Origin: a bacterium
GTDB lineage: Bacteria; SZUA-182; DTGQ01; JAFGSM01
DNA: 28,471 bases
Direction of reading: 5' to 3'
Assembly: GCA_049472355.1 (NCBI GenBank)
Contig: JBLIRP010000049.1
Coordinates: 1-28,471, forward strand
This document shows, piece after piece, positions 3,122 to 25,480 of the stretch; position 1 is the stretch's first letter, and each line of letters starts with the position of its first letter. The notes beneath the pieces were generated by a model. It was not told where the DNA came from. It saw nothing but the letters and a program-made list of their open reading frames with translations, and searched no databases. Both the position numbers and the translations under genes were made by a program.

Positions 3122-5536
3122 CTATGGCCGGGAGGTGTATATCGTGGAGGAATAGGGGATGCAAAAGAGGGTGTCCGACTGTCCTGCAAAGATTCGGTTC
3201 TCCCCGTCCCAGTGCTCGTGTGAGTTCTTGAAGCAGAACTTGAAGTGTGCGGGTGCGTCTTGGATCACGATCCTCCACCAGTGCCCATTGTTGAAATTCC
3301 CCTCGTACTGCATCGGAAAATCCCCGGATAAGCCGTCCCATGCATGGATGAAGTAGTTGGTTGCCGGTTCGAATTCCCTGTAGTGGATGGTGATCGTTCC
3401 CCCTCCGTTCTCTTTCTCCACCCCCACCACCTGTTTCATATAGCTGTCGAAGGTGATGACGTAGGCGCCCGGCCCTGCGGTGACCGCGTAATCGGAGGGT
3501 GGATACGCCTCATCCCAGGAGTCTGCACGATGCGAGATCTTGAACCGGGGATTGTCCGGCCCGAAGGTCTGGGTGGTCTCCCACAGCCCCTCTGCGTTGA
3601 GCATCATGGGGGAGGCGCCCCAGTTGTTGGGGGTTCCCCGGAAGTACCAGATATCCGGGATGTCCACCGCATTCTCGTAGGTGGTGAATGCGCCCCCGGA
3701 ATCGGCATACCCGCCGATGTCCCCCAGGAACACCGCCTTGGAGCAGTACCCGTACAGGGTTCCCAGGCCGTAGTCGTGCCTGTTCGAGTCGGATATGGCC
3801 GGATGGGTTCCCCCGCCCATGAGGGCGTGGGCCGGGGTGCCGGAGGGGATGTCAATTCCCGAGTCCCTCAGATTGATGTGTATATTCAGGGTATCGCCGC
3901 TGAAGTTGTGGCTGACCAGGATCATCTCCCCGTAGTATTCCCTGATGATGGAGAGGGTCTTTGATTCACCCTGGAGCCCGTCCCAGGTGTTTCCCGAGCG
4001 GGTGGGCACCACGTAGGTGATACCTCCGGCAAGTGCGCGGTAGGTGTTCCTCAGCCGCAGAAGCCTCCGGTAATGGTTGAAGATGGATGCAGGGTCCGTC
4101 TCCTGCTGTTGTGCCCTGGCCCAGTCCATGGGCAGGCGGATGGGCTCGTCCCCGTCACCTGCCCCGTTTGCCATGCCTATCTCTTCACCGTAGTAGATGG
4201 CCGGATTTCCCGAGAGGAGCAAATACAGGGAGGCGACCCCCTTCATCTTCGCCGTGTTGCCGTTGAGCTGGGTGGCCACCCGGTCCCCGGCGAACCGGTC
4301 GTGGTTGCTCAGGAATATGGTGTCCTGGGTGCCGGGGGGGAGTCTCCCCTGGACGGCATACACCTCCTGCATGAGGTCAGCAGGCCGCCGCCCGTTTTTG
4401 AGGCAGGCCATGAGCCTTCCCTGGAGGTTGAAGTGGAAGGCGGTGTGGAACTCGTCCCCGTCTCCGTAATAGGCGATCATCTGATCCGCGCTCTCGGTGG
4501 GGGCCTCCGCGAGCAGGATGGCGTCCTGCTTGATGCGCTCAAGCCGTGCCCTGAGGTCCTTCCATATTTGGTGGGTCTCGGGCTGGTCCTTCTGGGTTCC
4601 CCTGCCGTTTTCCACGAGGTAGCGTACCGCGTCGCAGCGGAACCCATCCACATCCGTTTCACTGACCCAGTGGCGCATCACGGCTTCGAACTCATCCAGG
4701 AGTTCCGCCTGCGAGGCGGGTGCATTGAAATTCAGATCGGGCATGGTGGCCCCGTCGGCATCGCCGAACACGCTGTAGTAATAATCGTCGTCATGGGGCT
4801 CCCCGTTGTGGTCTCTGTCCAGGTCCGCCTGTGGATCGAGGAACCATGTCGCGCCGGAGATATCCCCGGAACGGTTTTCCTCCCAGGGGTCCGGCCACCC
4901 GAGGTCGGATGCCGACCATATGAACCAGTGATCCCGCCGCACAGCGTCGTCCGGGGAGGAGAACCAGGGGTGTTCAGAGCCGCAGTGGTTCATCACCAGG
5001 TCGAGAATCACCCGCATCCCCTTGCGGTGGGCGCCGGCTACGAGATTCCCGAGGTCGTTCATCGTTCCGTAGCGGGGTTCGATGGCGTAATAATCGGTGG
5101 TATTGTATCCGTGCTCACTCATGGCCTTGAATATGGGCATGAGCCAGATGGTCTTGACACCCAGCTTCTCCAGGTAATCGAGCCGGTTGGTCACACCCTG
5201 GAGATTGCCTCCGAAGCGGTCCACAAACACCTCGTAGATACTGGTCCGGGTGACCCACGGGGATTCGTGTTCCAGGGTGGCGGGAGAGGCCGATGCCACT
5301 CTGGATGCGGCGGCGGGGGCCGATCGTGCCTCGCTGCGTCGGCGCTCCCCGGCAAACGCATCGGGCCGGGACGGAGGGGCGCCGGTTTCACCCACCCCTG
5401 TGTCGAGGATCAAGCCTTGCTGCGTGACGACGCGTTTCCTGCAGGAGGTGAGGGAGACGGAAGAGACGCAGAAAAAAAGCAATGCCGCAAACAGGACAAT
5501 CCGGTTTTCCCACTTTTTTCTCCTACACGGTGCCAT
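3122..5536 (-). CDS. GH13 alpha-amylase family protein, probable lipoprotein, with two C-terminal starch-binding-like modules
   Basis: GH13 conserved regions DLVMNH, DGFRCDAVRY (nucleophile), EAP (acid/base), FLSNHD and IYYGEEIGM. Start moved from 5626 to the ATG at 5536, which has an AGGAGAGG RBS and gives a basic + hydrophobic + LTSC lipobox leader. C-terminal WYFRGTPNNWG and IHAWDG...WW..FCFKN..WD modules. Confidence 0.9.
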   Translation of the reverse strand: MAPCRRKKWENRIVLFAALLFFCVSSVSLTSCRKRVVTQQGLILDTGVGETGAPPSRPDAFAGERRRSEARSAPAAASRVASASPATLEHESPWVTRTSIYEVFVDRFGGNLQGVTNRLDYLEKLGVKTIWLMPIFKAMSEHGYNTTDYYAIEPRYGTMNDLGNLVAGAHRKGMRVILDLVMNHCGSEHPWFSSPDDAVRRDHWFIWSASDLGWPDPWEENRSGDISGATWFLDPQADLDRDHNGEPHDDDYYYSVFGDADGATMPDLNFNAPASQAELLDEFEAVMRHWVSETDVDGFRCDAVRYLVENGRGTQKDQPETHQIWKDLRARLERIKQDAILLAEAPTESADQMIAYYGDGDEFHTAFHFNLQGRLMACLKNGRRPADLMQEVYAVQGRLPPGTQDTIFLSNHDRFAGDRVATQLNGNTAKMKGVASLYLLLSGNPAIYYGEEIGMANGAGDGDEPIRLPMDWARAQQQETDPASIFNHYRRLLRLRNTYRALAGGITYVVPTRSGNTWDGLQGESKTLSIIREYYGEMILVSHNFSGDTLNIHINLRDSGIDIPSGTPAHALMGGGTHPAISDSNRHDYGLGTLYGYCSKAVFLGDIGGYADSGGAFTTYENAVDIPDIWYFRGTPNNWGASPMMLNAEGLWETTQTFGPDNPRFKISHRADSWDEAYPPSDYAVTAGPGAYVITFDSYMKQVVGVEKENGGGTITIHYREFEPATNYFIHAWDGLSGDFPMQYEGNFNNGHWWRIVIQDAPAHFKFCFKNSHEHWDGENRIFAGQSDTLFCIPYSSTIYTSRP

Positions 5537-6045
5537 TATGCCTCTCCTTTTTTGTCTAAGATTGAGCACAGTGCTGCCGCATCGCCGGTGTGCATCCCTT
5601 TGGCAGATGACCCTGCACATTATCACCCGATCGCCGGCAAGGGGGATTCATGAGACCCCTTCACCGAAGGTGCATTATCACCCGGTTGCAGCCCCTCTAT
5701 AATATAAGAAATCCCATGTATTGCAACACCTGCCTTTTATATTCCCGCTTAATGCCAGGCGCATAAATTCGTCGTCTTACACCTTCCCGATGCAAAGGCG
5801 GCAATTCCAATTTTTAATTGCGTCTTCGCGGGAAGAAATGTTTACGGAGCGATAGAGGGCGGCCTTGTGTAACTTTTTTCGGCGAAGCGGCGTGAACATG
5901 TCTGAGCACACTCGTTGACCAAAGATATGACATTGGAATTGGCAAGGGTGCGGGCGTTGTTATTTTGTGTCGGGTTTGTTTATAATAACGCGACATCGTT
6001 TTTTTTCATGTATCGTGCATTGAACTGCCCGGCAAGGATGGAGCA

Positions 6046-7471: not shown

Positions 7472-9043
7472 TCAGGAGGGGTCCTGTGCCCCTTTTCCGG
7501 ATGTCTGGCCCACGGGTCCCATCGGTCCGGGCGCATGCGGTTCATCCGGCGACCTTTTTTCAACCCCGCTCAATTCATTGAGGTATCGGGTGAATTCCTC
7601 CTGGTCGGGGGTATGGGCAAGTGCGATCTCATCGCATACCGCCCCGATCTCGTCTCGTCCCCGGGCATCGGGAGGGATCTGCTCTGCCCAGAGGATGAGC
7701 GCCGCAAGGAAGAGGGAGATGTCCTGTTGCTGTTCCAGGGCGATTTTCTCCTTGAAATAGGAGGCAATCCTTTGCATGGTGTTTCTGCGGATTCTCCTTG
7801 ATATCGGGAGGAGTATCGCCGCCGCAACAAGGAAGGTGAGGGCGCCTATCTGAATCCCGGGGATACGATGCCCCAGTTTTGCTGCGAACATGGGAATCGC
7901 GATGGCGAGCAATGTAAAGAGAACGAAGAGAAGGTGGATGACGCGCCGTGCGCCCCTGTCGTCCGCCTCCTCCCTCGATCCCTGGTACAGGTTGGAAAAA
8001 TAGGTAAAGAGCTTGTCCTTCTGAGCTTGCAGGGCAGAGGGTGGCCCGGGCGGGGGAGAGGTGCCGACGATATCGGGTTGTGTTTCGGCAGGGCCTTTTC
8101 GCCCCTTCACCTTGTCGTCTGCCGTCTCCTTCGTCTCTTCGGACAGGGCACCGGAAGGGGTAGGAGGCGTATCCGGCCGGGATGGAGACGATGGGGTCGG
8201 CCCGGCCCGGCGAGGGGTGACCTCGGTGATCTTAATCTCGTCGGTTTCCTGCTTCTGCTGCAACTCTTCCTGTTTTTGCTTTTTTTTAATGAACTCTATA
8301 TAGCGCGCAATGATGATGCCGCACCTGACGCATTCAGGTCCCTCCTTTTGCTTATGCCCGCATTTCGGGCAGGTCATAAGGGGTGGGGCTGCGCCTGCCC
8401 GAGGGGATGGGGGTGCGGAGGGAGGGGATGGGGAAGCGCCTGCCGAAGGGTGCGGAGGTGTGGACGATTGGGGCGAGGAAGCGCCTGTCGGAGTTTTCGG
8501 GGGAGCAGAAGCGGGGAATGAAGATGCATCTGCCGGGGCCTTTGGCGAAGTGGAAGGACGGGATGTAGATGTATCTGCCTGAGGGCGTGGAGGTGCGGAG
8601 TCCTGTGATGGGGAAGCGCCTGCCGAAGGGTGCGGTGGCGTGGATGGTTGCGGTGAAGAGGTGGAAGGTCCGGGTGCGTCTTCGCCTGCCGGAGGGGATG
8701 GGGGTGCGGAGGGATGGGATGGGGACGCGCCTGCAGGTGTCTGTTTCGGGCCGGTGGGCCGGGGTGAGGCGGGGGGAGCGGTTGTCTTCCGGGGTTCGCC
8801 GATCCCCTTTTCCGGGCGGAAGATCTTGCATTGTACCCCCGCTTGTTTGAAGGGGCCGTAGATCTTGAGCGCGGTTTGATAATCGATGTTTTCTGCGATG
8901 GTGATCGGGGCAAGGGAAAAGAGATTGTCCACCCTGCTGCGGCTCCATTTGAAGATCCTGCACAGCTCGTTTTTGACCTCCTCCAGGTCGCGTCCCTGCA
9001 AGACCTTTCCTTCAAAGATGATCTTGAAACATTTCTCAGTCAT
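7472..9043 (-). CDS. Membrane protein: small N-terminal domain, Pro/Ser/Ala repeat linker, CxxC-CxxC zinc ribbon, two C-terminal TM helices
   Basis: GGAGG RBS. N-terminal FKIIFEGKVLQGRDLEEVKNELCRIFK. Zn ribbon CPKCGHKQKEGPECVRCG. Hydrophobic VIHLLFVLFTLLAIAIPMFA and IGALTFLVAAAILLPI. Confidence 0.8.
   Translation of the reverse strand: MTEKCFKIIFEGKVLQGRDLEEVKNELCRIFKWSRSRVDNLFSLAPITIAENIDYQTALKIYGPFKQAGVQCKIFRPEKGIGEPRKTTAPPASPRPTGPKQTPAGASPSHPSAPPSPPAGEDAPGPSTSSPQPSTPPHPSAGASPSQDSAPPRPQADTSTSRPSTSPKAPADASSFPASAPPKTPTGASSPQSSTPPHPSAGASPSPPSAPPSPRAGAAPPLMTCPKCGHKQKEGPECVRCGIIIARYIEFIKKKQKQEELQQKQETDEIKITEVTPRRAGPTPSSPSRPDTPPTPSGALSEETKETADDKVKGRKGPAETQPDIVGTSPPPGPPSALQAQKDKLFTYFSNLYQGSREEADDRGARRVIHLLFVLFTLLAIAIPMFAAKLGHRIPGIQIGALTFLVAAAILLPISRRIRRNTMQRIASYFKEKIALEQQQDISLFLAALILWAEQIPPDARGRDEIGAVCDEIALAHTPDQEEFTRYLNELSGVEKRSPDEPHAPGPMGPVGQTSGKGAQDPS
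8390..8735 (-). repeat. Intragenic degenerate tandem repeats of about 45 bp (15 aa)
   Basis: Units AGASPSHPSAPPSPP, AGASPSQDSAPPRPQ, ADTSTSRPSTSPKAP, ADASSFPASAPPKTP, TGASSPQSSTPPHPS, AGASPSPPSAPPSPR. Exact 29-bp DNA copies at 8427-8455 and 8607-8635; exact 23-bp copies at 8401-8423 and 8692-8714. Confidence 0.85.
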
Positions 9044-9067: not shown

Positions 9068-9730
9068 TCATTCCCTTCCCGCATCCCCGTCTCCTATTCC
9101 CACCTTTTCCCTTATTGCGTCGGCATCGAGATCCTCGATCAGCTTGACGAGGTGGGTCCAGATCCTGTGATATCCGAACCCCCCGGTGGTCATTTCCGCT
9201 ATCGCATCCTGTTTTGACCATCCGCAGACAACGACCCGATACACCGCCACCATCACCCCGGTGCGGTCCGCCCCGTGCATACAGTGCACGAAGACCGGTG
9301 TCCGCTCCTTGTCGGTCACAATCTGCAGGAAATGCACGATATCCTTCTCTGACGGATACCACGCGCCGACCCGGATGTGCTCGTTTTCAAGCCCGGTGTC
9401 ATCGATTTCGTCCTTGTCCGAATGGAATGTACGCAGGTTTATAACGGTTTTGATCCCCAATTCCTTGAGCCGGCGCATCCCTTCAGCGGTAGGCTGGGCG
9501 CCGCGGTACAGGTCATCGCTCACCTTGTACAGGTTGGGAAGCCCCTCGTATTCGAGTGGTTGCGCCCAATGTGCCGGGCGTGGCTCTATCCCTGAATCTC
9601 CCATGGTTTCAGAAATCCCGGGAATCATACCCACAAGGAGAACCGATACAAGTACACACCCCCATATTCCGTTGAGTCCGGGAAACCATGCCTTTGTGTG
9701 ACAATTCGCGATGATTCCAGTGGATTTCAC
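9068..9730 (-). CDS. Cys-based (CX5R) dual-specificity/tyrosine phosphatase, atypical DSP type, with N-terminal hydrophobic leader
   Basis: Motifs NLYKVSDDLYRGAQP, LGIKTVINLR and PVFVHCMHGADRTG. GTG start after GGAGGGG. Hydrophobic GIWGCVLVSVLLVGMIPG. Confidence 0.9.
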   Translation of the reverse strand: MKSTGIIANCHTKAWFPGLNGIWGCVLVSVLLVGMIPGISETMGDSGIEPRPAHWAQPLEYEGLPNLYKVSDDLYRGAQPTAEGMRRLKELGIKTVINLRTFHSDKDEIDDTGLENEHIRVGAWYPSEKDIVHFLQIVTDKERTPVFVHCMHGADRTGVMVAVYRVVVCGWSKQDAIAEMTTGGFGYHRIWTHLVKLIEDLDADAIREKVGIGDGDAGRE

Positions 9731-10057: not shown

Positions 10058-10474
10058 TCATTTGCCCTCAATGGGGTACCGGGATCTCATCCACTCGTCC
10101 CAGCCTCCGGAGAGGGTGTAGACCTTTTTGAATCCCTTCGATTTGAGCCTTTGCGCCAGACCCGCACTGGTCGAAACATTCGGGGATGCGCAATAGAGGA
10201 TGATCGTATCCTCCTTCGGATACTTCTGTAACCAGGAGGTTACCTTTTCGGGCCCCTCCCGCAGGGCGCCCTTGATCATGAAGTCACTTTTTTTCCAGTC
10301 CGTTTCGGTGCGCACATCCAGAATGGTCGGATCGGTGAATTCAATAAGCACCCGGAGATCCTCTTTGGTGATTCCGGATGCTGCATCGGCTGCCATGGCC
10401 GAACATACGCTCACGGCGAGCATGAGCAGGAGGAGCGATATCCCCCTGCACCGCATGAGAGTTTGGTCTAACAT
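10058..10474 (-). CDS. Rhodanese-like domain protein with signal peptide
   Basis: Motifs ILDVR, IKGALR, IILYCASPN and GFKKVYTLSGGWDEW. Leader SLLLLMLAVSVCSAMA. Starts 3 nt after the TIM-barrel stop. Confidence 0.85.
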   Translation of the reverse strand: MLDQTLMRCRGISLLLLMLAVSVCSAMAADAASGITKEDLRVLIEFTDPTILDVRTETDWKKSDFMIKGALREGPEKVTSWLQKYPKEDTIILYCASPNVSTSAGLAQRLKSKGFKKVYTLSGGWDEWMRSRYPIEGK

Positions 10475-10477
10475 GAT

Positions 10478-11356
10478 TTATTCCCCCTCAAGGTCGTTAC
10501 TGTCCCGAGCGTGGACTGTTCCATTCCCTTGCCGGTGCTGATCGGCCATGACGAGCAGCCTCTCCCGTGCCCGATTGAGGAGTGACGGTGGATCCGGCCA
10601 CTGCTCCAGGATGATGGAGCCGGAAAAACCGCGCTTCTTCAGCCGGTCGAGGAAACCCTGAAGGCCGCTGGTATCCCGGGCTGAAGGTCCTGTAAAGACA
10701 AGAAGATGACTGTCCCTGTCCCCGAAGTTTTCGTGGAGATGGACATGGATGATCGGGACTTCCGGATCGAGCCGGTCAAAGAACCGCAGGTAGTCGTTCA
10801 CCGTCGAAGGGGAGAGGTTCGCGTGCCCCAGGTCCAGGCACATCCCTACGTGAGAGGCCTTTCGTGCCCGGGATGCGCGAAGATGGGAGAATACCCCGTT
10901 TATGTCCTCGGGTGAGGTATGGGGGGTGTTTTCGATGGCGAGACTGATCCCCATGGCAGCGGTATGCTCCATAATGTGGTCTATTGCGGGAATGAAACGT
11001 ACTGCCTCGGCGCATAGATGGATGGTGAAGAGGGTGGCGCCGATTTCACGGGCAAATGAAATCCCCTGCAGCATATGGTCATGTCCCATTGGGGTGAAGG
11101 GATCTGATCCCCCCGGCGCATGGACGGAGAGGGTTATGCCGTTGGCACGGGCGGTCTGGCTGATGGAACGGCGGGTCCGGTGGTTGATGTCGGTGATTGA
11201 AAACCCCGCGCCGTTCCCCTTCTTGTCGGGAAACCATTCGAATGCATCGAAGCCGCCGGCGACCGCATACTCGAAGGGGAGCAGGGGGTATCTGGCAGCA
11301 TACGAGGTTTGGTTGCCGATCCTGAAGGGTCTTCCTTCGCTATTGATCCCTTTCAC
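10478..11356 (-). CDS. Xylose isomerase-like / AP-endonuclease-2 family TIM-barrel metalloenzyme (sugar-phosphate isomerase/epimerase annotation class)
   Basis: Motifs GFDAFEW, LSVHAP, FTIH, LAIENT, CLDLGHAN, HVHLHENFGDRDSHL and IILE. The GTG start overlaps the last 17 nt of the dikinase gene. Confidence 0.85.
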   Translation of the reverse strand: MKGINSEGRPFRIGNQTSYAARYPLLPFEYAVAGGFDAFEWFPDKKGNGAGFSITDINHRTRRSISQTARANGITLSVHAPGGSDPFTPMGHDHMLQGISFAREIGATLFTIHLCAEAVRFIPAIDHIMEHTAAMGISLAIENTPHTSPEDINGVFSHLRASRARKASHVGMCLDLGHANLSPSTVNDYLRFFDRLDPEVPIIHVHLHENFGDRDSHLLVFTGPSARDTSGLQGFLDRLKKRGFSGSIILEQWPDPPSLLNRARERLLVMADQHRQGNGTVHARDSNDLEGE

Positions 11357-14300
11357 CCTTTCGCTCCGGGAGCCCTACCTGGGGACGCGCCTGGACCACG
11401 AAATATTCCCCGCGGGCATAGGCCCCTTCGATATCCTGGGGGCAGCCCAGGACATGCTCTGTTGCAATGCCGACCCTGGTGATTCCCAGGAGAAGGTCTC
11501 GCCTGAAATTCTCATCCTGCACCATGGGCTCGTGGGAATAGTCGAGGACCACGCTGCGGGAAGGCCTCGACAGGACGCTGTCGTAGAGCCCTGCCCCCGC
11601 GTAGCCGGCGAGGTCCTCGGCGTTTGAATCCGAGCGGAAGATGAGCCCTGTGCCGAAGATGCCGGTGCCCTTGCTCGGATATGAGAGCACCCGCGGTTCG
11701 GGATGCCCCTTGTCTGAGACGAATCCCAGTGCCCTGCCGGGGTGGTTTCCGACCAGGGTCTCGCCCAATCCCACCACCACCTCCGCATAGAGTTCATGCC
11801 TGTTCCCGGTGAAGGGATTGGCGGTGTGGATCACGAATGCGTATTCCGCCTCCACCACCTCCTGGATGAGCACCGCCATGAACAGATCCCGATGCCTCAA
11901 TCCCCATGCCCTGCGGCTCAGGTATGCCCGTTCGTTCCACTTGGACGCCCATACCCGTTTGATGCATTCCCATATATGATCACAGTCTCCCCTGAAGCGG
12001 AGCCCCGCCTCCTCCATGGTTCCCTTGAGGGAGGGCATGAACCCCTCCGGCTGATCGAGGAGCATGAGACAGGCGCGCACCTCCTGGAGGGTTTTCGCCG
12101 GGTGTCTTCCGATCCCCCGGGTGAGATCCGCGTAACGCTGCGCAATCACATGGTTTTTTCGATCGGAGAGCACCGCGTCGAATGCACCGAAGGGAAGGGC
12201 CATCGAGGCGGGTATGCGGATCCATGCAGGCAGCGCATCGGCAAGGCGTTTCAGGTTGAAGGACTTCCCCCCTACGACCGCTCTTCTAAAATATCCCAAC
12301 CCCACCGGCCGGGCAAAGGTATCCACCTGTGAAGACATATCCGGCCGGGCAAGAACAGTGTGCCGCATGCGAGGGGATACCCGTTCCCCCCTTCTTTTCT
12401 TTCCTCGCCCTTCCGCCATAAGCACCTCCCCGGATGCGGAGGAGGTGAGCCGGATGTAATGCCCTTCCAGGGCGACAATACGATCAATGGTGTCCCTGTC
12501 GTAGCAGGTGGCAAAGAGAAGCCCGGTGTTGCGTGCCCGGATTGCTATATGGGAGACACAATCGACTATGTCGGTGGTGAGAAGGGCGGTGATTCCCTCG
12601 GGGATCTCCTCCTCGCCGGTGATGCCTCGGGCAACCACTACGGTGGGGGTGGGAAACGCTTTTCCCTGGATCGATCGGAGGCGGTCCACCACCATGACGA
12701 TCCCATCTCCGCTGCCGGGGCTGATGACCTGCCAGTTCCCGAGCTCGGCCAGGGTGCGCAGCAGCGGGGTGAGGCGATGCACGAACTGCGACAGGACAAA
12801 GGCGAGTCCCCCTCGCACCACCTCCTCGCTGAACAGGTTGATGCTCCAGGCCTCGGCGCCGAGCGCATCCCCCAGCGATTCCGCCACGGGCTGGATGTGC
12901 CGGGAGAGGTCATCGATGAATACGCCGATGGCACGCTCCAGCCGCTCCAGCACGGATGCCGCCTGGAGGGACCATTCCCGGTCCATGCGGCGGTCTTCCA
13001 TGAGCCGGTCCCAATGGCGGCAGCATGCGGCGATCTCCTCATCATCCCGGATAAGGACCATGTTTTTGAGCACCAGGCCGATGATCTCGACAAGCTGGTT
13101 TCCGTCGAAGTCATGGTGGAGGTTTCGCTCGGCAGCCGAGCGCAGGAGCCCTTGCAGTGCGAGGTCGAGAAAGAGAAGATCGCGGATCTGTTCGGGATTT
13201 CCTTTCATATGCGGGGACTCGTGGATATGGGTGCGGACCGTGGTGATTCGGGAGAGGAGGTCCGTCAGGGAGGCGGCTGTGGTATCCCGATGGCGCCGGA
13301 TAAACCGGAGCTGGTCGTTCGTCCTTTTATCGAGGTGCGGTTCGGCTGATTCCATGGCATTTTCGAGGTCGGTAGCCGAGTACACCGATTTGAGGATCTT
13401 CAGGTATCCCTCGAAGTCCTCGATCAGCGCCTCCTGTATATCCGGATAAAACTCCGGCTCTGTGCGAATGGGCCGCTCGAAGCCCTCCAGGCGACTTCTT
13501 CCGACCCCGCCCTCATCGAGTGTTGCATAGAACAGGTCCAGATCCCCGCCGCTTCTGAGGAAGGCAAGATATGCCTCGCTGATGACGATGTCATCCGGTG
13601 TGGCATTGTTGTGGAGCTTCTGGTGCCACTCCTCCAGAAAATTGCCGGCCACCTCCTTGATCCGGTGCCTGTGCATGATATGGAGGAATTCGTCCCGTAT
13701 GCGCTGGCCCTCTCCACCCCTGCCCACGGTGGTCATGATCAGACGCATCCATTCGCGCGTCTTCGGTCCGCCCTTGCAGAAGTTGTCCGCAAGCCTCAGG
13801 GTAAGCCGGTCCAGGGCATGGCTCAGCTCCCGGGGTTGGGTGTTGTAGCTGCGTTGCCAGGTCAGTTGCCGTATGGCGGAAAGGCGCAGCCACACGTAGA
13901 GCAGGGCCAATCCCTCGATGTCTTCACCCACCCGCTCCACGAGGTCGAAGGCGAGATTGTACCGGTGCATCAGCGACCAGGAGCCGCTCCTCGTTTCGGA
14001 ATGGATGATTTCAGCGGCAATACCGGAAAGCAAAGGGGATGGGCCCGACGACGACTGATACGATATGTCACGGAGGGGGATGGAGAAATTGCGGCCGTTG
14101 TTCCTGATCCACTGTCCCGTATCGGGCTGCCACAGCAGGAAGGAGATGCCCTGTGGCGCATGTGCCCTTCTGAAGTCCAGGCGGATTCGATTGATCCCCT
14201 CCCGCTCGGAAAAGGGGGTCCGGGCGGCGGATCGCTTAAACAGGGTGGTGCCGGGAGGGCGTATGGAGGGAGCGGGCAGGGACCATTCATCCCGATGATT

Positions 14301-14861
14301 GCGCCGCGTCACGCCCCAGTGGAGGATAAGGGGGCCGGGCACGTTGGTCACCAGGGTTACCCGCACGACGTCCTCCTCACGGGTGACCGCACCTGCCAGA
14401 TTGCCCTCCTCGAATCGGTAGAGGTGCTCGAACATCACGGCTTCCTGAGCGATCTCCTCTTTGAGGACATCGAAGGGGGAGGGCGAGACCTTGATGGCGG
14501 GCAATTCGATGCGGTAATTCTCTCCGTTGTTGTTATCCCAGGATTCCTCCTCCGGAAAGAAGAGGGCGAAATCGATGAGGGAGAAGTCCGGGGAACGAGG
14601 GAGCCGAATGCGGATGCGTCCCTCCCCGTTATCGAGACTGAAGGGGGTTTGCACCGCGTCCGGGCCGATCTGCCGGGTTCCCTCGGGCCAGTGGGTGCGT
14701 GGCGGAATCCTCCATGGTGAGTGGGGATGACGGCTGAGCCCCCAGTGAAGGAGGCAGTGCCTCCTCGGATTCAACCGCAGAAGCACCTCGATCCCGTGGG
14801 CGGCAATGCGCTTTTCCACATGGAGACTGAGGCCCTTCCCCGTTTTTATTTCTTCAGTCAC
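11340..14861 (-). CDS. gwd: Alpha-glucan, water dikinase (plant GWD1/R1/SEX1-type): 2x CBM45, central GWD domain, phospho-His domain, PPDK-type nucleotide-binding domain
   Basis: Two LLHWG/ILHWG...W..P....P.GT....A..TPF...W..NNG.N(Y/F) modules. Central WLRLSAIRQLTWQRSYNTQPRELSHALDRLT, LIMTTVGRGGEGQRIRDE and EEWHQKLHNNATPDDIVISEA. GEEEIPEG and DCVSHIAIRARN (catalytic His). C-terminal VWASKWNERAY, MAVLIQEV, YAFVIHTANP, GLGETLVG, FRSDSNAEDLAGYAGAGLYDSV, PQDIEG and VVQARPQV. Likely start is the GTG at 14861 (AAGGATAAGGGAA upstream); the ORF track starts at 14939. Confidence 0.92.
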   Translation of the reverse strand: MTEEIKTGKGLSLHVEKRIAAHGIEVLLRLNPRRHCLLHWGLSRHPHSPWRIPPRTHWPEGTRQIGPDAVQTPFSLDNGEGRIRIRLPRSPDFSLIDFALFFPEEESWDNNNGENYRIELPAIKVSPSPFDVLKEEIAQEAVMFEHLYRFEEGNLAGAVTREEDVVRVTLVTNVPGPLILHWGVTRRNHRDEWSLPAPSIRPPGTTLFKRSAARTPFSEREGINRIRLDFRRAHAPQGISFLLWQPDTGQWIRNNGRNFSIPLRDISYQSSSGPSPLLSGIAAEIIHSETRSGSWSLMHRYNLAFDLVERVGEDIEGLALLYVWLRLSAIRQLTWQRSYNTQPRELSHALDRLTLRLADNFCKGGPKTREWMRLIMTTVGRGGEGQRIRDEFLHIMHRHRIKEVAGNFLEEWHQKLHNNATPDDIVISEAYLAFLRSGGDLDLFYATLDEGGVGRSRLEGFERPIRTEPEFYPDIQEALIEDFEGYLKILKSVYSATDLENAMESAEPHLDKRTNDQLRFIRRHRDTTAASLTDLLSRITTVRTHIHESPHMKGNPEQIRDLLFLDLALQGLLRSAAERNLHHDFDGNQLVEIIGLVLKNMVLIRDDEEIAACCRHWDRLMEDRRMDREWSLQAASVLERLERAIGVFIDDLSRHIQPVAESLGDALGAEAWSINLFSEEVVRGGLAFVLSQFVHRLTPLLRTLAELGNWQVISPGSGDGIVMVVDRLRSIQGKAFPTPTVVVARGITGEEEIPEGITALLTTDIVDCVSHIAIRARNTGLLFATCYDRDTIDRIVALEGHYIRLTSSASGEVLMAEGRGKKRRGERVSPRMRHTVLARPDMSSQVDTFARPVGLGYFRRAVVGGKSFNLKRLADALPAWIRIPASMALPFGAFDAVLSDRKNHVIAQRYADLTRGIGRHPAKTLQEVRACLMLLDQPEGFMPSLKGTMEEAGLRFRGDCDHIWECIKRVWASKWNERAYLSRRAWGLRHRDLFMAVLIQEVVEAEYAFVIHTANPFTGNRHELYAEVVVGLGETLVGNHPGRALGFVSDKGHPEPRVLSYPSKGTGIFGTGLIFRSDSNAEDLAGYAGAGLYDSVLSRPSRSVVLDYSHEPMVQDENFRRDLLLGITRVGIATEHVLGCPQDIEGAYARGEYFVVQARPQVGLPERKGERDQ

Positions 14862-15036
14862 TTCCCTTATCCTTATGATTCCTTTGGTTTTTTGGCATAC
14901 AAAACCATTTCGCACATATCCCGGATGACGGCCGTGCAAGGGTATACGAAGTCCGAGGAATGACGGAATCGCATTTATTCTATAGCAGCGGAAAAGGAAA
15001 AGTCCAGCATGAAAGACGCAAGAAACAGCACAGGTT

Positions 15037-15164
15037 TGGGGTCAGGTCTTGAACTGTCAGTTTTTCTCGAAAATAAACCTTTTGTTTATTTTCATGCTTC
15101 GTGGCGCCGCTAAAGCGGCATGAGGGTTTGCTCCGAAAAACTGATATTTCAAGACCTGACCCCA
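15037..15164. repeat. 128-bp palindromic REP/MITE-like element with 30-bp inverted ends enclosing a second repeat unit
   Basis: 15037-15066 TGGGGTCAGGTCTTGAActgTCAGTTTTTC vs the reverse complement of 15135-15164 TGGGGTCAGGTCTTGAAataTCAGTTTTTC (28/30). Inner hairpins GAAAATAAAC/GTTTATTTTC and GCCGC-taaa-GCGGC. Confidence 0.85.
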
Positions 15165-15190
15165 TTTTGTTCATTTTGTTCGAGAGGCCC

Positions 15191-15811
15191 CTACAGAAAA
15201 GGAAAAGGAATGCCCTTTCCCTCCCGCAGTACCTTCACCTCTTCGCCTGAGAGATCCACCAGGGTGGTAGGCACAGTCCCGCATGGTCCACCGTCGATGA
15301 TGAGATCCACCTGCCTTTCCAGCCGCTCCCGTATCTCCTCCGGGTCCATCATGGGCGATTTGTCTCCCGGGATGATCAGGGTGGTGGTGAGCATCGGCTC
15401 GTGCAGCTCGTCAAGCAGGGCTTGAACGATGTGGTGATCGGGGATGCGTATCCCGATGGTCTTTCTTTTCGGATGCAGCAGCCTTCGGGGCACTTCCTTG
15501 GTGGCCCTGAGGATGAAGGTGTAGGGACCGGGCGTATTCGTCCTGAGGAGGCGGAAGACCGGGGTGTCGAACCGCGCATATACCCTGGCCTCCGAGAGAT
15601 TCCTGCAGATGAGGGTGAAATTGTGTTTTGCCGTAAGGTTGCGAATCTGGCAGATCCTCTCCTGGGCGGCCTTGTCTCCGATGTGGCATCCGAGGGCATA
15701 GGTCGAGTCGGTGGGATAGACCGCCACCCCGCCGTTGCGTATGATCTCCACCGCCTGGTCAATGAGCCTTATCTGCGGGGTGTCAGGATGGACCACCAGG
15801 AACTGACTCAT
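15191..15811 (-). CDS. yciO: Sua5/YciO/YrdC family protein (YciO-like)
   Basis: MSQFLVVHPDTPQIRLIDQAVEIIRNGGV.VYPTDSTYALGC, HNFTLIC, TPGPYTFILRATKEVPRRLLHPKRKTIGIRIPD and DLIIDGG. Confidence 0.9.
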   Translation of the reverse strand: MSQFLVVHPDTPQIRLIDQAVEIIRNGGVAVYPTDSTYALGCHIGDKAAQERICQIRNLTAKHNFTLICRNLSEARVYARFDTPVFRLLRTNTPGPYTFILRATKEVPRRLLHPKRKTIGIRIPDHHIVQALLDELHEPMLTTTLIIPGDKSPMMDPEEIRERLERQVDLIIDGGPCGTVPTTLVDLSGEEVKVLREGKGIPFPFL

Positions 15812-18071: not shown

Positions 18072-18379
18072 GGTAAATCCCCCTGTACAAGAGTTGGTGC
18101 CTATTACTTTGATCGGAATATGCCCCTTTTTTAATCTTGGTGTGGCGATCCCCTCTGTGCCCTGTACTGCAGGGAACCTTGTGAACAGGCCGGGCCCTAT
18201 CTCCCGAAGACCCTCCGGAGGAGCTGAGTGGTCCGCGCAGCGGGGTCTTCGCGAATGCGTTTTTCCTCCTGCCCGAGGATTGCGAAGAGCCCGTCCAGTG
18301 CCCGGTCGGTGACATATACGTTCAGGTCGACGGCCGGTTTGGTCACAAAGGGAAGGCTTCCCTCCCACGAGGGATTCTG

Positions 18380-18504
18380 AGCAAACCCTCATGCCGCTTC
18401 GCAGCGCCACGAGGCATGAAAATAGGCAATACGTTTATTTTCGCAGCAAACCCTCATGGCCCTTCGGGCCGCCACGAAGCATGAAAATCTATTTTCGCAG
18501 CAAA
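18380..18504 (+). repeat. Tandem copies of a ~60-bp REP-like unit AGCAAACCCTCAT-[hairpin]-GCCACGAAGCATGAAAAT...TATTTTCG
   Basis: Units at 18380-18443 and 18445-18497, plus a partial AGCAAA at 18499-18504. A third copy is inverted at 15068-15132. Confidence 0.85.
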
Positions 18505-24896: not shown

Positions 24897-25232
24897 TCAA
24901 TAGGGCATCTTCTCAGCGGGCCTTCGCTCGGGCACGTACCGGTGAGGGATCCTTCCCTCGTTCCATTCCTTGGATACATAGAGATTGCAGTAGCAGCTCC
25001 CGTACTCCTCCACATCCGGGGCACGGTATACGCAGGGACAGATGATATCCTTGTCCTTGTCGCGGTCTCCGGACGCGAGCCTGCACGGGCAGCACATGTA
25101 CCCGTAGCGTTTCTTGTTCACCAGCAACCCCTCCAGGAGATCGAAGGTCCTCTGCCTATCCTTGTTGAAAAGATACCCCTTGGGCTCCTGGACCCGTTTC
25201 AGCATCTCATGGAGTTTTTCAACCTCGCTCAT
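24897..25232 (-). CDS. Ferredoxin:thioredoxin reductase catalytic-subunit-like protein (4Fe-4S)
   Basis: RYGYMCCPCRL...DIICPCVYR...YGSCYCNLY. True start is the ATG at 25232, overlapping the glutaredoxin TGA; the ORF-track extension to 25406 is out-of-frame glutaredoxin sequence. Confidence 0.92.
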   Translation of the reverse strand: MSEVEKLHEMLKRVQEPKGYLFNKDRQRTFDLLEGLLVNKKRYGYMCCPCRLASGDRDKDKDIICPCVYRAPDVEEYGSCYCNLYVSKEWNEGRIPHRYVPERRPAEKMPY

Positions 25233-25480
25233 TGACTCAGTGCCTCCCTGATCGCCTCTTCGTTGAATCCCACAATGACCTCGTCCCCGATGAGGATGGT
25301 GGGAAAGGTGCACCTGGGATTCACCCGTTTTACCTCCTCGATGACGGCCTGTCTCTCCTTTCCCTCCAGGAGGTCCACATCCGTATAGTCGTAGCGCACA
25401 TTGCATTCATTCAGGAACTTCTTGGCTGCATTGCAGTGGCTGCAAGTGCTGAGGGTGTAGATCCTTACCGGTTTCTGCAT
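25229..25480 (-). CDS. Glutaredoxin (NrdH/YruB-like)
   Basis: IYTLSTCSHC, cis-Pro TFPT and VIVGF. Confidence 0.92.
   Translation of the reverse strand: MQKPVRIYTLSTCSHCNAAKKFLNECNVRYDYTDVDLLEGKERQAVIEEVKRVNPRCTFPTILIGDEVIVGFNEEAIREALSQ

Follow-up and report, generated by a model that had tools for sequence, protein, structure and literature searches.

The minus strand of a 28,471-nucleotide stretch of DNA (hereafter the window), which is contig C93 of a bacterial metagenome-assembled genome (MAG; 3.49 Mb, 148 contigs, 87.5% complete), carries a gene for an alpha-glucan, water dikinase (GWD) of the kind known from plants. As judged from its sequence, the encoded protein is by family a true GWD1-type enzyme, and the gene is genuine bacterial DNA. 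We consider it probable that the enzyme works in the cytoplasm on the storage glucan of its host, together with a phosphate-removing partner, a TIM barrel encoded directly downstream; the part assigned to the barrel is, taken singly, proposed more tentatively.

11340-14861, minus strand: GWD-type alpha-glucan, water dikinase gene; GTG start, 1173 aa; open reading frame (ORF), Pfam and match to PDB 9ha9

The frame is open without interruption from a TTG at 14939 to the stop codon at 11340-11342, and the ORF of about 1170 residues described in the original prediction, which had been made from the letters of the DNA, comprises 1173 aa when counted from the GTG at 14861. This start is supported by a AAGGATAAGGGAA stretch just 5' of it, corresponding to the Shine-Dalgarno-like leader already noticed, and by the N-termini of 25 aligned bacterial homologues, which coincide with it (consensus MxxTExIxTxSG). 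In agreement with the same prediction, the gene is a single open frame free of introns, overlaps the downstream bacterial gene by 17 nt (11340-11356) and has a base composition like that of its surroundings (GC 0.59-0.63 in the gene, 0.55-0.62 in the neighbouring kilobases). No signal peptide, transit peptide or other N-terminal extension was visible by eye in the translation. A scan for promoters and terminators around the operon yielded three, no better than the 2.2 expected from shuffled sequences.

All of the sequence blocks quoted beforehand (RQLTWQRSYNTQPRELS, TVGRGGEGQRIRDE, EEWHQKLHNNATPDD and DCVSHIAIRARN) were found in the translation. Pfam detected, in this order, Ig_N_CWD1 in two stretches (E 3.6e-48), GWD1_pHisD (residues 709-816, E 6.4e-34) and PPDK_N (E 1.1e-23), the last being the PPDK-like ATP-binding domain that had been placed at the C-terminus. 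Ig_N_CWD1 is the CBM45-type module of GWD1. The domains are as follows.

14487-14819, minus strand: CBM45-type module 1 (residues ~15-125, approximate bounds; Pfam Ig_N_CWD1)
14073-14381, minus strand: CBM45-type module 2 (residues 161-263, best Pfam Ig_N_CWD1 stretch)
12747-14054, minus strand: GWD central helical domain, presumed glucan-acceptor site (residues 270-705; phmmer match to 9ha9_A/9qvi_A)
12414-12737, minus strand: phospho-histidine domain (residues 709-816; Pfam GWD1_pHisD)
11364-12281, minus strand: C-terminal ATP-binding domain (residues ~861-1166; Pfam PPDK_N)

The presence of two CBM45-like modules was borne out by BLASTP, in which residues 37-139 matched the CBM45 of Capsicum GWD1 and each N-terminal module aligned with both plant CBM45 modules. 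The LHWG and W-I/D-x-N-G-x-NF blocks of the Capsicum modules are retained in this alignment, from which glucan binding is predicted, and none of the six CBM45 tryptophans (W40/W50/W108 and W182/W193/W251), residues of a kind that starch binding requires, varies among the 26 bacterial sequences compared. Residues 270-705 matched the central domain of the solved chloroplast/potato GWD1 (9ha9_A/9qvi_A) with an E-value of 1.6e-81 and 277 bits, in keeping with the GWD-specific central blocks recognised earlier; the similarity to GWD is thus not limited to the PPDK domain, the outcome that had been named as fatal to the assignment.

The catalytic histidine, His771, lies in DCVSHIAIRARN at the codon predicted for it (12549-12551), and this motif agrees with the catalytic-histidine block SH(V/I)(A/S)(V/I)RARN. 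It aligns with His992 of potato StGWD1 (mature numbering) and is a histidine in 195 of 196 aligned rows. In the available part of PMC13553574, E900 and R904 of StGWD1 are proposed as a candidate catalytic pair (proton donor/stabiliser); their equivalents are E679 and R683, the arginine being present in all 196 rows and the glutamate in 177. Residues were mapped through an alignment with Capsicum GWD1 (P0140, 1464 aa), and the potato mature-protein numbering follows the same part of that article. The retention of the catalytic His, the E/R pair, the ATP motifs and the CBM tryptophans indicates purifying selection on catalysis.

Phosphoenolpyruvate (PEP) synthase, pyruvate, phosphate dikinase (PPDK) and rifampin phosphotransferase share with the dikinase a homologous ATP-grasp domain and the swivelling histidine chemistry, but they have another acceptor domain and, in Pfam, the reversed domain order that had been anticipated for the first two, which begin with the nucleotide domain, carry the His domain in the middle and end in a PEP/pyruvate TIM barrel. 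Chains of PEP synthase and rifampin phosphotransferase matched residues 904-1039 only. NCBIfam models of the PEP-synthase type scored 38-66 bits against cut-offs of 598-1700, and in the best case (65.8 bits, cut-off 866) the nucleotide domain alone was matched.

Plant GWD1 (StGWD1/R1, SEX1; EC 2.7.9.4; 9HA9/9QVI, PMC13553574) has the same order of domains, CBM45-CBM45-central-His-ATP, shares the catalytic His and the E900/R904 equivalents, and is about 40% identical over the catalytic 717 aa. A search with these C-terminal 717 aa retrieved named eukaryotic GWD1s, among them those of Populus, Capsicum, Chlamydomonas, Tetraselmis, Bryopsis and Cyanophora, which are 37-44% identical over that region. 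The plant enzyme is longer (1464 vs 1173 aa), has a transit peptide where the bacterial one lacks any N-terminal extension, and separates its CBM45 modules by a linker of ~210 aa (mature residues 130-342 in the available potato description), whereas the bacterial modules lie ~35 residues apart. Pfam found DUF7067 between the CBM45 modules of Capsicum GWD1 and not in the bacterial dikinase. Moreover, the redox pair that reads CFATC in Capsicum reads LFATC in the dikinase (with Leu782), as it does in Chlamydomonas and Cyanophora. The accessible text of PMC12892837 describes thioredoxin control of plant GWD through the CFATC disulfide, and since the first Cys is replaced by Leu782, such control is not expected in the bacterial enzyme. 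The CFATC pair, DUF7067 and the transit peptide, all missing here, define the land-plant subgroup and not the family. Finally, the glucan of the bacterial host would be of the glycogen type, and starch is not known from it, in contrast to plants, and its dikinase is coupled to a TIM-barrel gene, unlike plant GWD1.

A homologue of the ferredoxin-thioredoxin reductase catalytic beta chain (FeThRed_B, E 6e-22) is encoded at 24897-25406 on the minus strand, ~10 kb from the dikinase; no link between the two is evident, because the dikinase lacks the plant redox cysteine pair.

The bacterial origin of the gene was examined from several sides. Its neighbours in the window are ordinary bacterial genes by Pfam (OmpA-family, GGDEF, PAS/GAF histidine kinase, Sua5/YciO and others). 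Window positions 2110-24114 (22 kb) are collinear, at 89-93% nucleotide identity, with a MAG of the same genus that was deposited independently (L012), and this collinearity crosses both ends of the dikinase gene. Contig pieces identical to the window were present in DNA runs of three studies; as the run holding it best may be the source sample, the other two studies were counted as independent. One metagenome piece (X6, 11267-11424) spans the overlap between the dikinase stop and the TIM-barrel start. The gene is therefore genuine bacterial DNA, correctly assembled, and its attribution to a bacterial chromosome stands. A eukaryotic sequence introduced by mis-assembly, mis-binning or very recent transfer from an alga might be suspected, given that the closest experimentally known relatives are all eukaryotic and that the source genome is a MAG of 148 contigs and 87.5% completeness. 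That explanation can hardly be credited and is already contradicted by the assembly and by relatedness: an intron-free gene overlaps a bacterial-type gene by 17 nt, its order is kept over 22 kb in an independent MAG, and a contig from another study crosses the junction with the TIM barrel. In addition, the nearest relatives, 48-88% identical, are all from bacterial MAGs or metagenome contigs, whereas eukaryotic GWD1 reaches 37-44%, and the bacterial clade is deep and extends over many phyla.

Relatives of the dikinase are common among bacteria. A word-index protein search with the dikinase returned at least 1496 proteins at E<=1e-10; the best 120 of them were all of ~1030-1230 aa with the same three Pfam families, and among these 120 the organism-labelled entries were bacterial MAGs and the others metagenome contigs. 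HMMER against 1.84 billion cluster representatives (50% identity) gave 6213 matches at E<=1e-3, 1662 at E<=1e-10 and 558 at E<=1e-30. When contigs from one genome per prokaryote species were searched, 477 of the 488 pattern-matched stretches encoded a dikinase relative. The 79 related loci kept from this search, nearly all from MAGs, bear the titles Nitrospirota/Thermodesulfovibrionia, Desulfobacterota, Verrucomicrobiota, Planctomycetota (Scalindua, Anammoxibacter, Gemmataceae), Terriglobia, Chromatiales, Nitrospinota and Deferribacteres, with one Promethearchaeota MAG; L071 alone has a title that bears no MAG mark. A dikinase match at E<=1e-20 was also found in 13 of 41 related genomes, including four of the five others in the same family. 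The rarity of bacterial GWD implied at the outset was not upheld, and the present dikinase is one more member of a large bacterial clade that is visible in databases. The expectation that automatic pipelines would name such proteins only for a PEP/pyruvate-binding domain held for NCBI, with its labels 'PEP/pyruvate-binding' or 'phosphohistidine-like domain-containing protein', 'phosphoenolpyruvate synthase' and 'hypothetical', but not for JGI, where many relatives are called 'alpha-glucan,water dikinase'.

The surroundings of these relatives point to alpha-glucan metabolism. ORFs were called in the 79 loci and the window and grouped into single-linkage clusters on BLASTP matches (E<1e-8) that covered >=50% of the shorter protein, and family names were assigned by Pfam on one representative of each recurrent cluster. 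At least one alpha-glucan enzyme gene lay <=10 kb from the dikinase in 47 of the 79 loci, and in 36 of the 46 loci of >=15 kb; by a rough reckoning, which is not a computed control and takes a genome to have a handful of glycogen genes in a few thousand, a random gene would lie near glycogen genes only a few percent of the time. The following families were found within this distance.

GT5 starch/glycogen synthase: 30 of 79 loci
GH13 with debranching-enzyme-like domain: 27 of 79 loci
GH57 of branching-enzyme type (with BE_C): 25 of 79 loci
GlgX/isoamylase: 14 of 79 loci
Shorter GH57: 11 of 79 loci
GH77 4-alpha-glucanotransferase: 10 of 79 loci

The host genome itself encodes a complete ADP-glucose glycogen pathway. 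GlgC (473 bits, cut-off 425) and a phosphorylase-family gene are present, and tblastn with the cluster representatives detected genes of the GlgA type (43% identity, E 9e-109) and of the GlgX type (E 1e-150), three of the GH57 branching type, the GH13 type and the short GH57. An ADP-glucose-derived intracellular alpha-glucan is thus available to the dikinase, an ATP-requiring enzyme that carries no export signal, and this storage glucan is its most likely acceptor. Phosphorylation of a cytoplasmic alpha-glucan is hence the predicted and best-supported function, as the original prediction had proposed, with the glycogen pathway of the host and the glucan genes near its relatives both consistent with it.

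A GH13 alpha-amylase-family protein of 834 aa is encoded in the window at 3122-5626 on the minus strand, with a lipoprotein-like signal (…SLTSC) and ~300 C-terminal residues for which Pfam has no family. The protein presumably degrades starch or another glucan outside the cytoplasm, and was discarded as a partner of the dikinase on account of the lipoprotein-type signal (seen by eye) and its position outside the conserved neighbour clusters.

The only conserved neighbour of the dikinase within the window is the gene that overlaps its 3' end.

10478-11356, minus strand: endonuclease-IV-like, putatively metal-binding TIM barrel, 292 aa, candidate phosphoglucan phosphoesterase; Pfam AP_endonuc_2 ('xylose isomerase-like')

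A homologue of this barrel lies directly downstream of the dikinase on the same strand in 40 of the 61 loci that hold >=900 bp of downstream sequence. In 16 loci, moreover, a single ORF of 1145-1277 aa matches both a TIM barrel and a dikinase, and in all four of those checked by Pfam AP_endonuc_2, GWD1_pHisD and PPDK_N were found in one protein. These fusions, in which the barrel is joined to the central, His and ATP domains, are encoded directly after a CBM45-type dikinase, and the occurrence of both in one ORF provides a gene-fusion link between the barrel and dikinase chemistry. Their positions are as follows.

TIM-dikinase fusions: L039:13597-17205, L053:13641-17183, L043:13473-17144, L069:13466-16984 and 12 more loci

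At E<=1e-30, a profile built from 28 barrels detected the subfamily in 6 of the 41 related genomes; all six were among the 13 with a dikinase and none among the 28 others, these genomes being kin and not independent. Thirteen residues, among them the candidate metal ligands, are invariant in the 28 barrels (His79, His113, Glu142, Asp175, His178, His204, His206, His208, Glu209, Asp213, Asp215, His217 and Glu251). In PDB the profile matched MJ1311 (3wqo, E 1e-13), Mycobacterium endonuclease IV (5zhz, 3.9e-5), the African swine fever virus (ASFV) apurinic/apyrimidinic (AP) endonuclease (6khy, 4.8e-4), UlaE (0.016) and E. coli endonuclease IV (0.03). The HAP, H, EN, DxxH and DxH metal motifs of the barrel align with the endonuclease IV-type chains 5zhz and 6khy, with weak E-values. 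An AlphaFold (AF2) model had a mean confidence (pLDDT) of 89.2, and its nearest folds were 3wqo and the ASFV AP endonuclease, followed by many ketose 3-epimerases.

Endonuclease IV, MJ1311 (3WQO) and CbiR have the AP_endonuc_2 fold of the barrel, whose sequence scores against them are weak and below the family cut-offs; its genomic partner is a glucan dikinase, and not DNA repair or cobamide genes. Sugar epimerases are equally close in fold. The ligand-rich site looks nearer to that of multi-metal phosphoesterases, such as E. coli Nfo with its nine ligands, than to that of four-ligand epimerases. The barrel is put forward here, with some reserve, as a candidate phosphoglucan phosphoesterase; the chief competing reading is that it epimerises or isomerises a sugar. 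Its proposed role is like that of SEX4, LSF2 and laforin, namely removal of the phosphate added by a dikinase; these, however, are cysteine-based dual-specificity phosphatases (DSPs), and no such conserved partner stands beside the bacterial dikinase. With a compact dikinase, a glycogen-type host and an endonuclease-IV-like barrel that is coupled to it, or fused in relatives, the system departs from the eukaryotic paradigm.

The genes that follow the barrel were also considered.

10058-10474, minus strand: rhodanese-domain gene (Pfam Rhodanese), 3 nt after the TIM-barrel stop

The rhodanese gene is probably co-transcribed with the TIM barrel; its cluster was found in four loci only, and it is not a conserved partner. 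The gene after it (9068-9730, minus strand) encodes a DSP-like protein with the DSP/protein tyrosine phosphatase fold and the P-loop HCMHGADRTG. It was rejected as a partner of SEX4/laforin type, as its hydrophobic N-terminus (by eye) suggests export and its cluster occurs in only three loci. No CBM was found in it by Pfam, and weak NCBIfam matches to TIGR01244-type sulfur-transferase domains hint at sulfur chemistry rather than glucan dephosphorylation. Additionally, a family of ~362 aa with no Pfam match adjoins bacterial GWD genes in 17 related loci (for example L029:20112-21200), though not in this window. Eleven of the 17 copies lie downstream on the same strand and five overlap the dikinase ORF (median gap 264 bp); a faint CbiR-like NCBIfam match (E 0.0022) was detected in this family.

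From the evidence above we infer an acceptor, a phosphorylated position, a physiological role and an activity of the partner. By analogy with potato GWD1, ATP would bind to the C-terminal domain of the dikinase, His771 would take the beta-phosphate while the gamma-phosphate passed to water, and the His domain would then swing to the central domain and hand the phosphate to a glucosyl hydroxyl, most likely at C6. As acceptor, the two CBM45 modules would bind the storage glucan that the cell itself makes from ADP-glucose, and its phosphorylation likely loosens or marks the polymer for mobilisation. The translationally coupled TIM barrel, with its endonuclease-IV-type ligands, could afterwards remove the phosphate as a stand-in for SEX4, LSF2 or laforin, a step that we advance as a working proposal.

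Several observations weigh against this account. The activity of bacterial GWD, its acceptor and the choice between C6 and C3 are predicted from homology. Bacterial glycogen is usually soluble, so that an enzyme for opening crystals is hard to account for. The glycogen genes of the host lie on contigs other than the window, in which Pfam and clustering detected none of the recurrent glycogen-gene clusters. The barrel is not directly downstream in 21 of the 61 loci, and two relatives with a close dikinase gave no TIM match at E<=1e-30. The best NCBIfam match of the barrel, to the cobamide-remodelling phosphodiesterase CbiR, is weak (39 bits, cut-off 105), as are those to the endonuclease IV of Mycobacterium and E. 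coli, and sugar epimerases figure beside AP endonucleases among its nearest folds. Pieces of the dikinase gene are contained in a metatranscriptomic library (X11); DNA carry-over is possible, and the contigs bear neither strand nor level, so this presence does not prove transcription.

Some of these points would suit an active dikinase whose acceptor is not the storage glucan but another polysaccharide or a small molecule, as with the kindred rifampin and phenolic phosphotransferases, the barrel then serving the same pathway by epimerising or isomerising a sugar. The acceptors of the dikinase superfamily are diverse (LmRPH and BsPPS in the available part of PMC13553574), ketose 3-epimerases and UlaE are among the fold neighbours of the barrel, Pfam found no glycogen gene in the window, and the next gene of what looks like the same operon encodes a rhodanese. 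We regard this explanation as unlikely, because the link of the enzyme to plant GWD is conserved best in the domains on the acceptor side (the central domain, E 1.6e-81, and the CBM45 modules with their tryptophans), glucan enzymes occur near the gene in 36 of the 46 long loci, and the rhodanese is common to four loci only. Loss of phosphorylation altogether, with the retained fold serving as a glucan-binding or ATP-hydrolysing regulator, is less likely still: truncated forms of StGWD1 do hydrolyse ATP without glucan according to the portion of PMC13553574 at hand, and the activity of bacterial GWD is predicted from sequence, but the His, the E/R pair, the ATP motifs and the CBM tryptophans are all kept in 26 sequences that are only ~50% identical. 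A cytoplasmic GWD1-type dikinase acting on storage glucan with a barrel partner remains our preferred reading.

The relationship to eukaryotic GWD was studied with two trees, one by FastTree (195 rows x 872 columns; locus ORFs of >=800 aa, sequences from 12 named eukaryotes and 100 of the 149 representatives that have >=900 aa, after removal of a gappy row) and one by a quick run of IQ-TREE (LG+G4, 66 rows x 843 columns, SH-aLRT support). With FastTree, all of the locus-derived CBM45-type bacterial sequences fell into one clade with representatives of 950-1280 aa (support 0.787), which was sister to Cyanophora, Gloeochaete and Cyanidium (0.976). IQ-TREE recovered the bacterial clade (27 rows, SH-aLRT 96) but placed it as sister to a eukaryotic clade of 22 rows (81), and not to the glaucophytes specifically. 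The glaucophyte (Cyanophora, Gloeochaete) and Cyanidium GWDs likewise lack DUF7067 (shown for Cyanophora P0125), and that of Cyanophora reads LFATC like the bacterial dikinase; unlike the bacterial gene, theirs are eukaryotic nuclear genes of starch-forming algae. In both trees the TIM-fused dikinases were set apart as a bacterial clade of their own on a long branch (support 1.0 and 100), close to an Auribacterota protein, and a Margulisiibacteriota protein was placed alone. Likewise in both, a protein of 900 aa from a JGI metagenome contig (P0280) stood beside the cryptophyte/haptophyte clade (95 in IQ-TREE), and was counted as bacterial because it is 62% identical to an 881-aa second dikinase from the same genus (G001). 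At least three bacterial dikinase lineages thus appear interleaved with eukaryotic ones, in trees that have weak deep nodes and no outgroup. The relevance of the gene to the origin of eukaryotic GWD, raised in the original prediction, is plausible on trees that are weak at depth and give no direction of transfer.

The host genome has such a second GWD-type dikinase at C34:5455-7836 (L092), truncated by the end of the contig, and its counterpart in the sister genome is the 881-aa protein mentioned above (G001:C47; L091:8739-11384). It has no recognisable N-terminal module, and genes for UDP-glucose dehydrogenase and Mfd follow it. With ~20 clusters at 52-71% identity it makes up a small bacterial group, whose nearest other relatives are CBM45-bearing proteins of cryptophyte, green and streptophyte algae (33-38% identity). 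Orthology with phosphoglucan, water dikinase (PWD) was not supported, the protein falling in this group nearest the cryptophyte/green-algal CBM45 clade. Among its look-alikes in a protein atlas is a cluster of which 12% of the members carry CBM20, no more than a lead.

A more far-reaching proposal is that dikinase and barrel constitute a bacterial cycle of reversible glucan phosphorylation with a new class of metal-dependent phosphatase that has no kinship with SEX4/laforin, and also that eukaryotes inherited starch phosphorylation from bacteria and did not invent it. The latter part draws on the depth of dikinase diversity, which spans many phyla and comprises three or more bacterial lineages, in many cases linked to the barrel in an operon or fused with it; the combined proposal is conceivable, though doubtful.

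Other features of the window are recorded here. A dispersed repeat of ~130 bp with terminal inverted repeats, resembling a miniature inverted-repeat transposable element (MITE), lies at 15037-15164 between the dikinase start and the next gene, and a second copy at 18375-18488 upstream of the histidine-kinase gene; a 171-bp query gave 86 BLASTN high-scoring pairs in the host genome, and the depth of metagenome contigs jumps to ~570-590 over 15069-15200. At 7472-9043 (minus strand), in DNA with a strong GC skew of 0.26, a 523-aa protein rich in Pro/Ser/Ala/Thr repeats is encoded, with a CPxCG...CxxCG zinc-ribbon-like motif, a hydrophobic segment and no Pfam match. Positions 1-2109 are low in GC (0.40-0.45, vs ~0.55-0.63 elsewhere), end in a ParE-family toxin gene (1798-2109) and are probably a mobile or acquired segment. 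A tRNA scan of the window found none.

A full-text literature search, with subscription journals and book chapters (Colpaert et al. 2020) outside its scope, found no description or test of a bacterial GWD. The view of GWD as a hallmark of eukaryotic starch, from which the original prediction had started, persists in the available portions of the literature to late 2026. A review of that year describes prokaryotes, in its accessible text, as being without laforin and 'known glucan phosphorylation machinery' (PMC13666283); it also cites work in which potato R1 was expressed in E. coli and the phosphate bound to glycogen was measured. The parts at hand of the StGWD1 structure article (PMC13553574) and of PMC7569903 contain no mention of 'bacteria' or 'prokaryot' and of 'bacteri' or 'prokaryot', respectively. 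Two candidate reports were set aside, PMC4046663 because it concerns pyruvate water dikinase and PMC11190351 because it mentions Verrucomicrobia for ACT-domain proteins only.

Hundreds of such genes in Nitrospirota, Desulfobacterota, Verrucomicrobiota, Planctomycetota and others qualify by every sequence criterion as glucan-phosphorylating machinery, which bears on a question that recent reviews state as open. A full-length structure of plant GWD is still missing according to the available parts of PMC12892837 and PMC13553574, and the compact bacterial enzymes, with neither transit peptide nor long flexible linker, may be easier targets. The finding makes testable whether bacterial storage glucan is phosphorylated and in what physical form, whether the barrel is a new phosphoglucan phosphatase, and from what source the starch phosphorylation of eukaryotes came.

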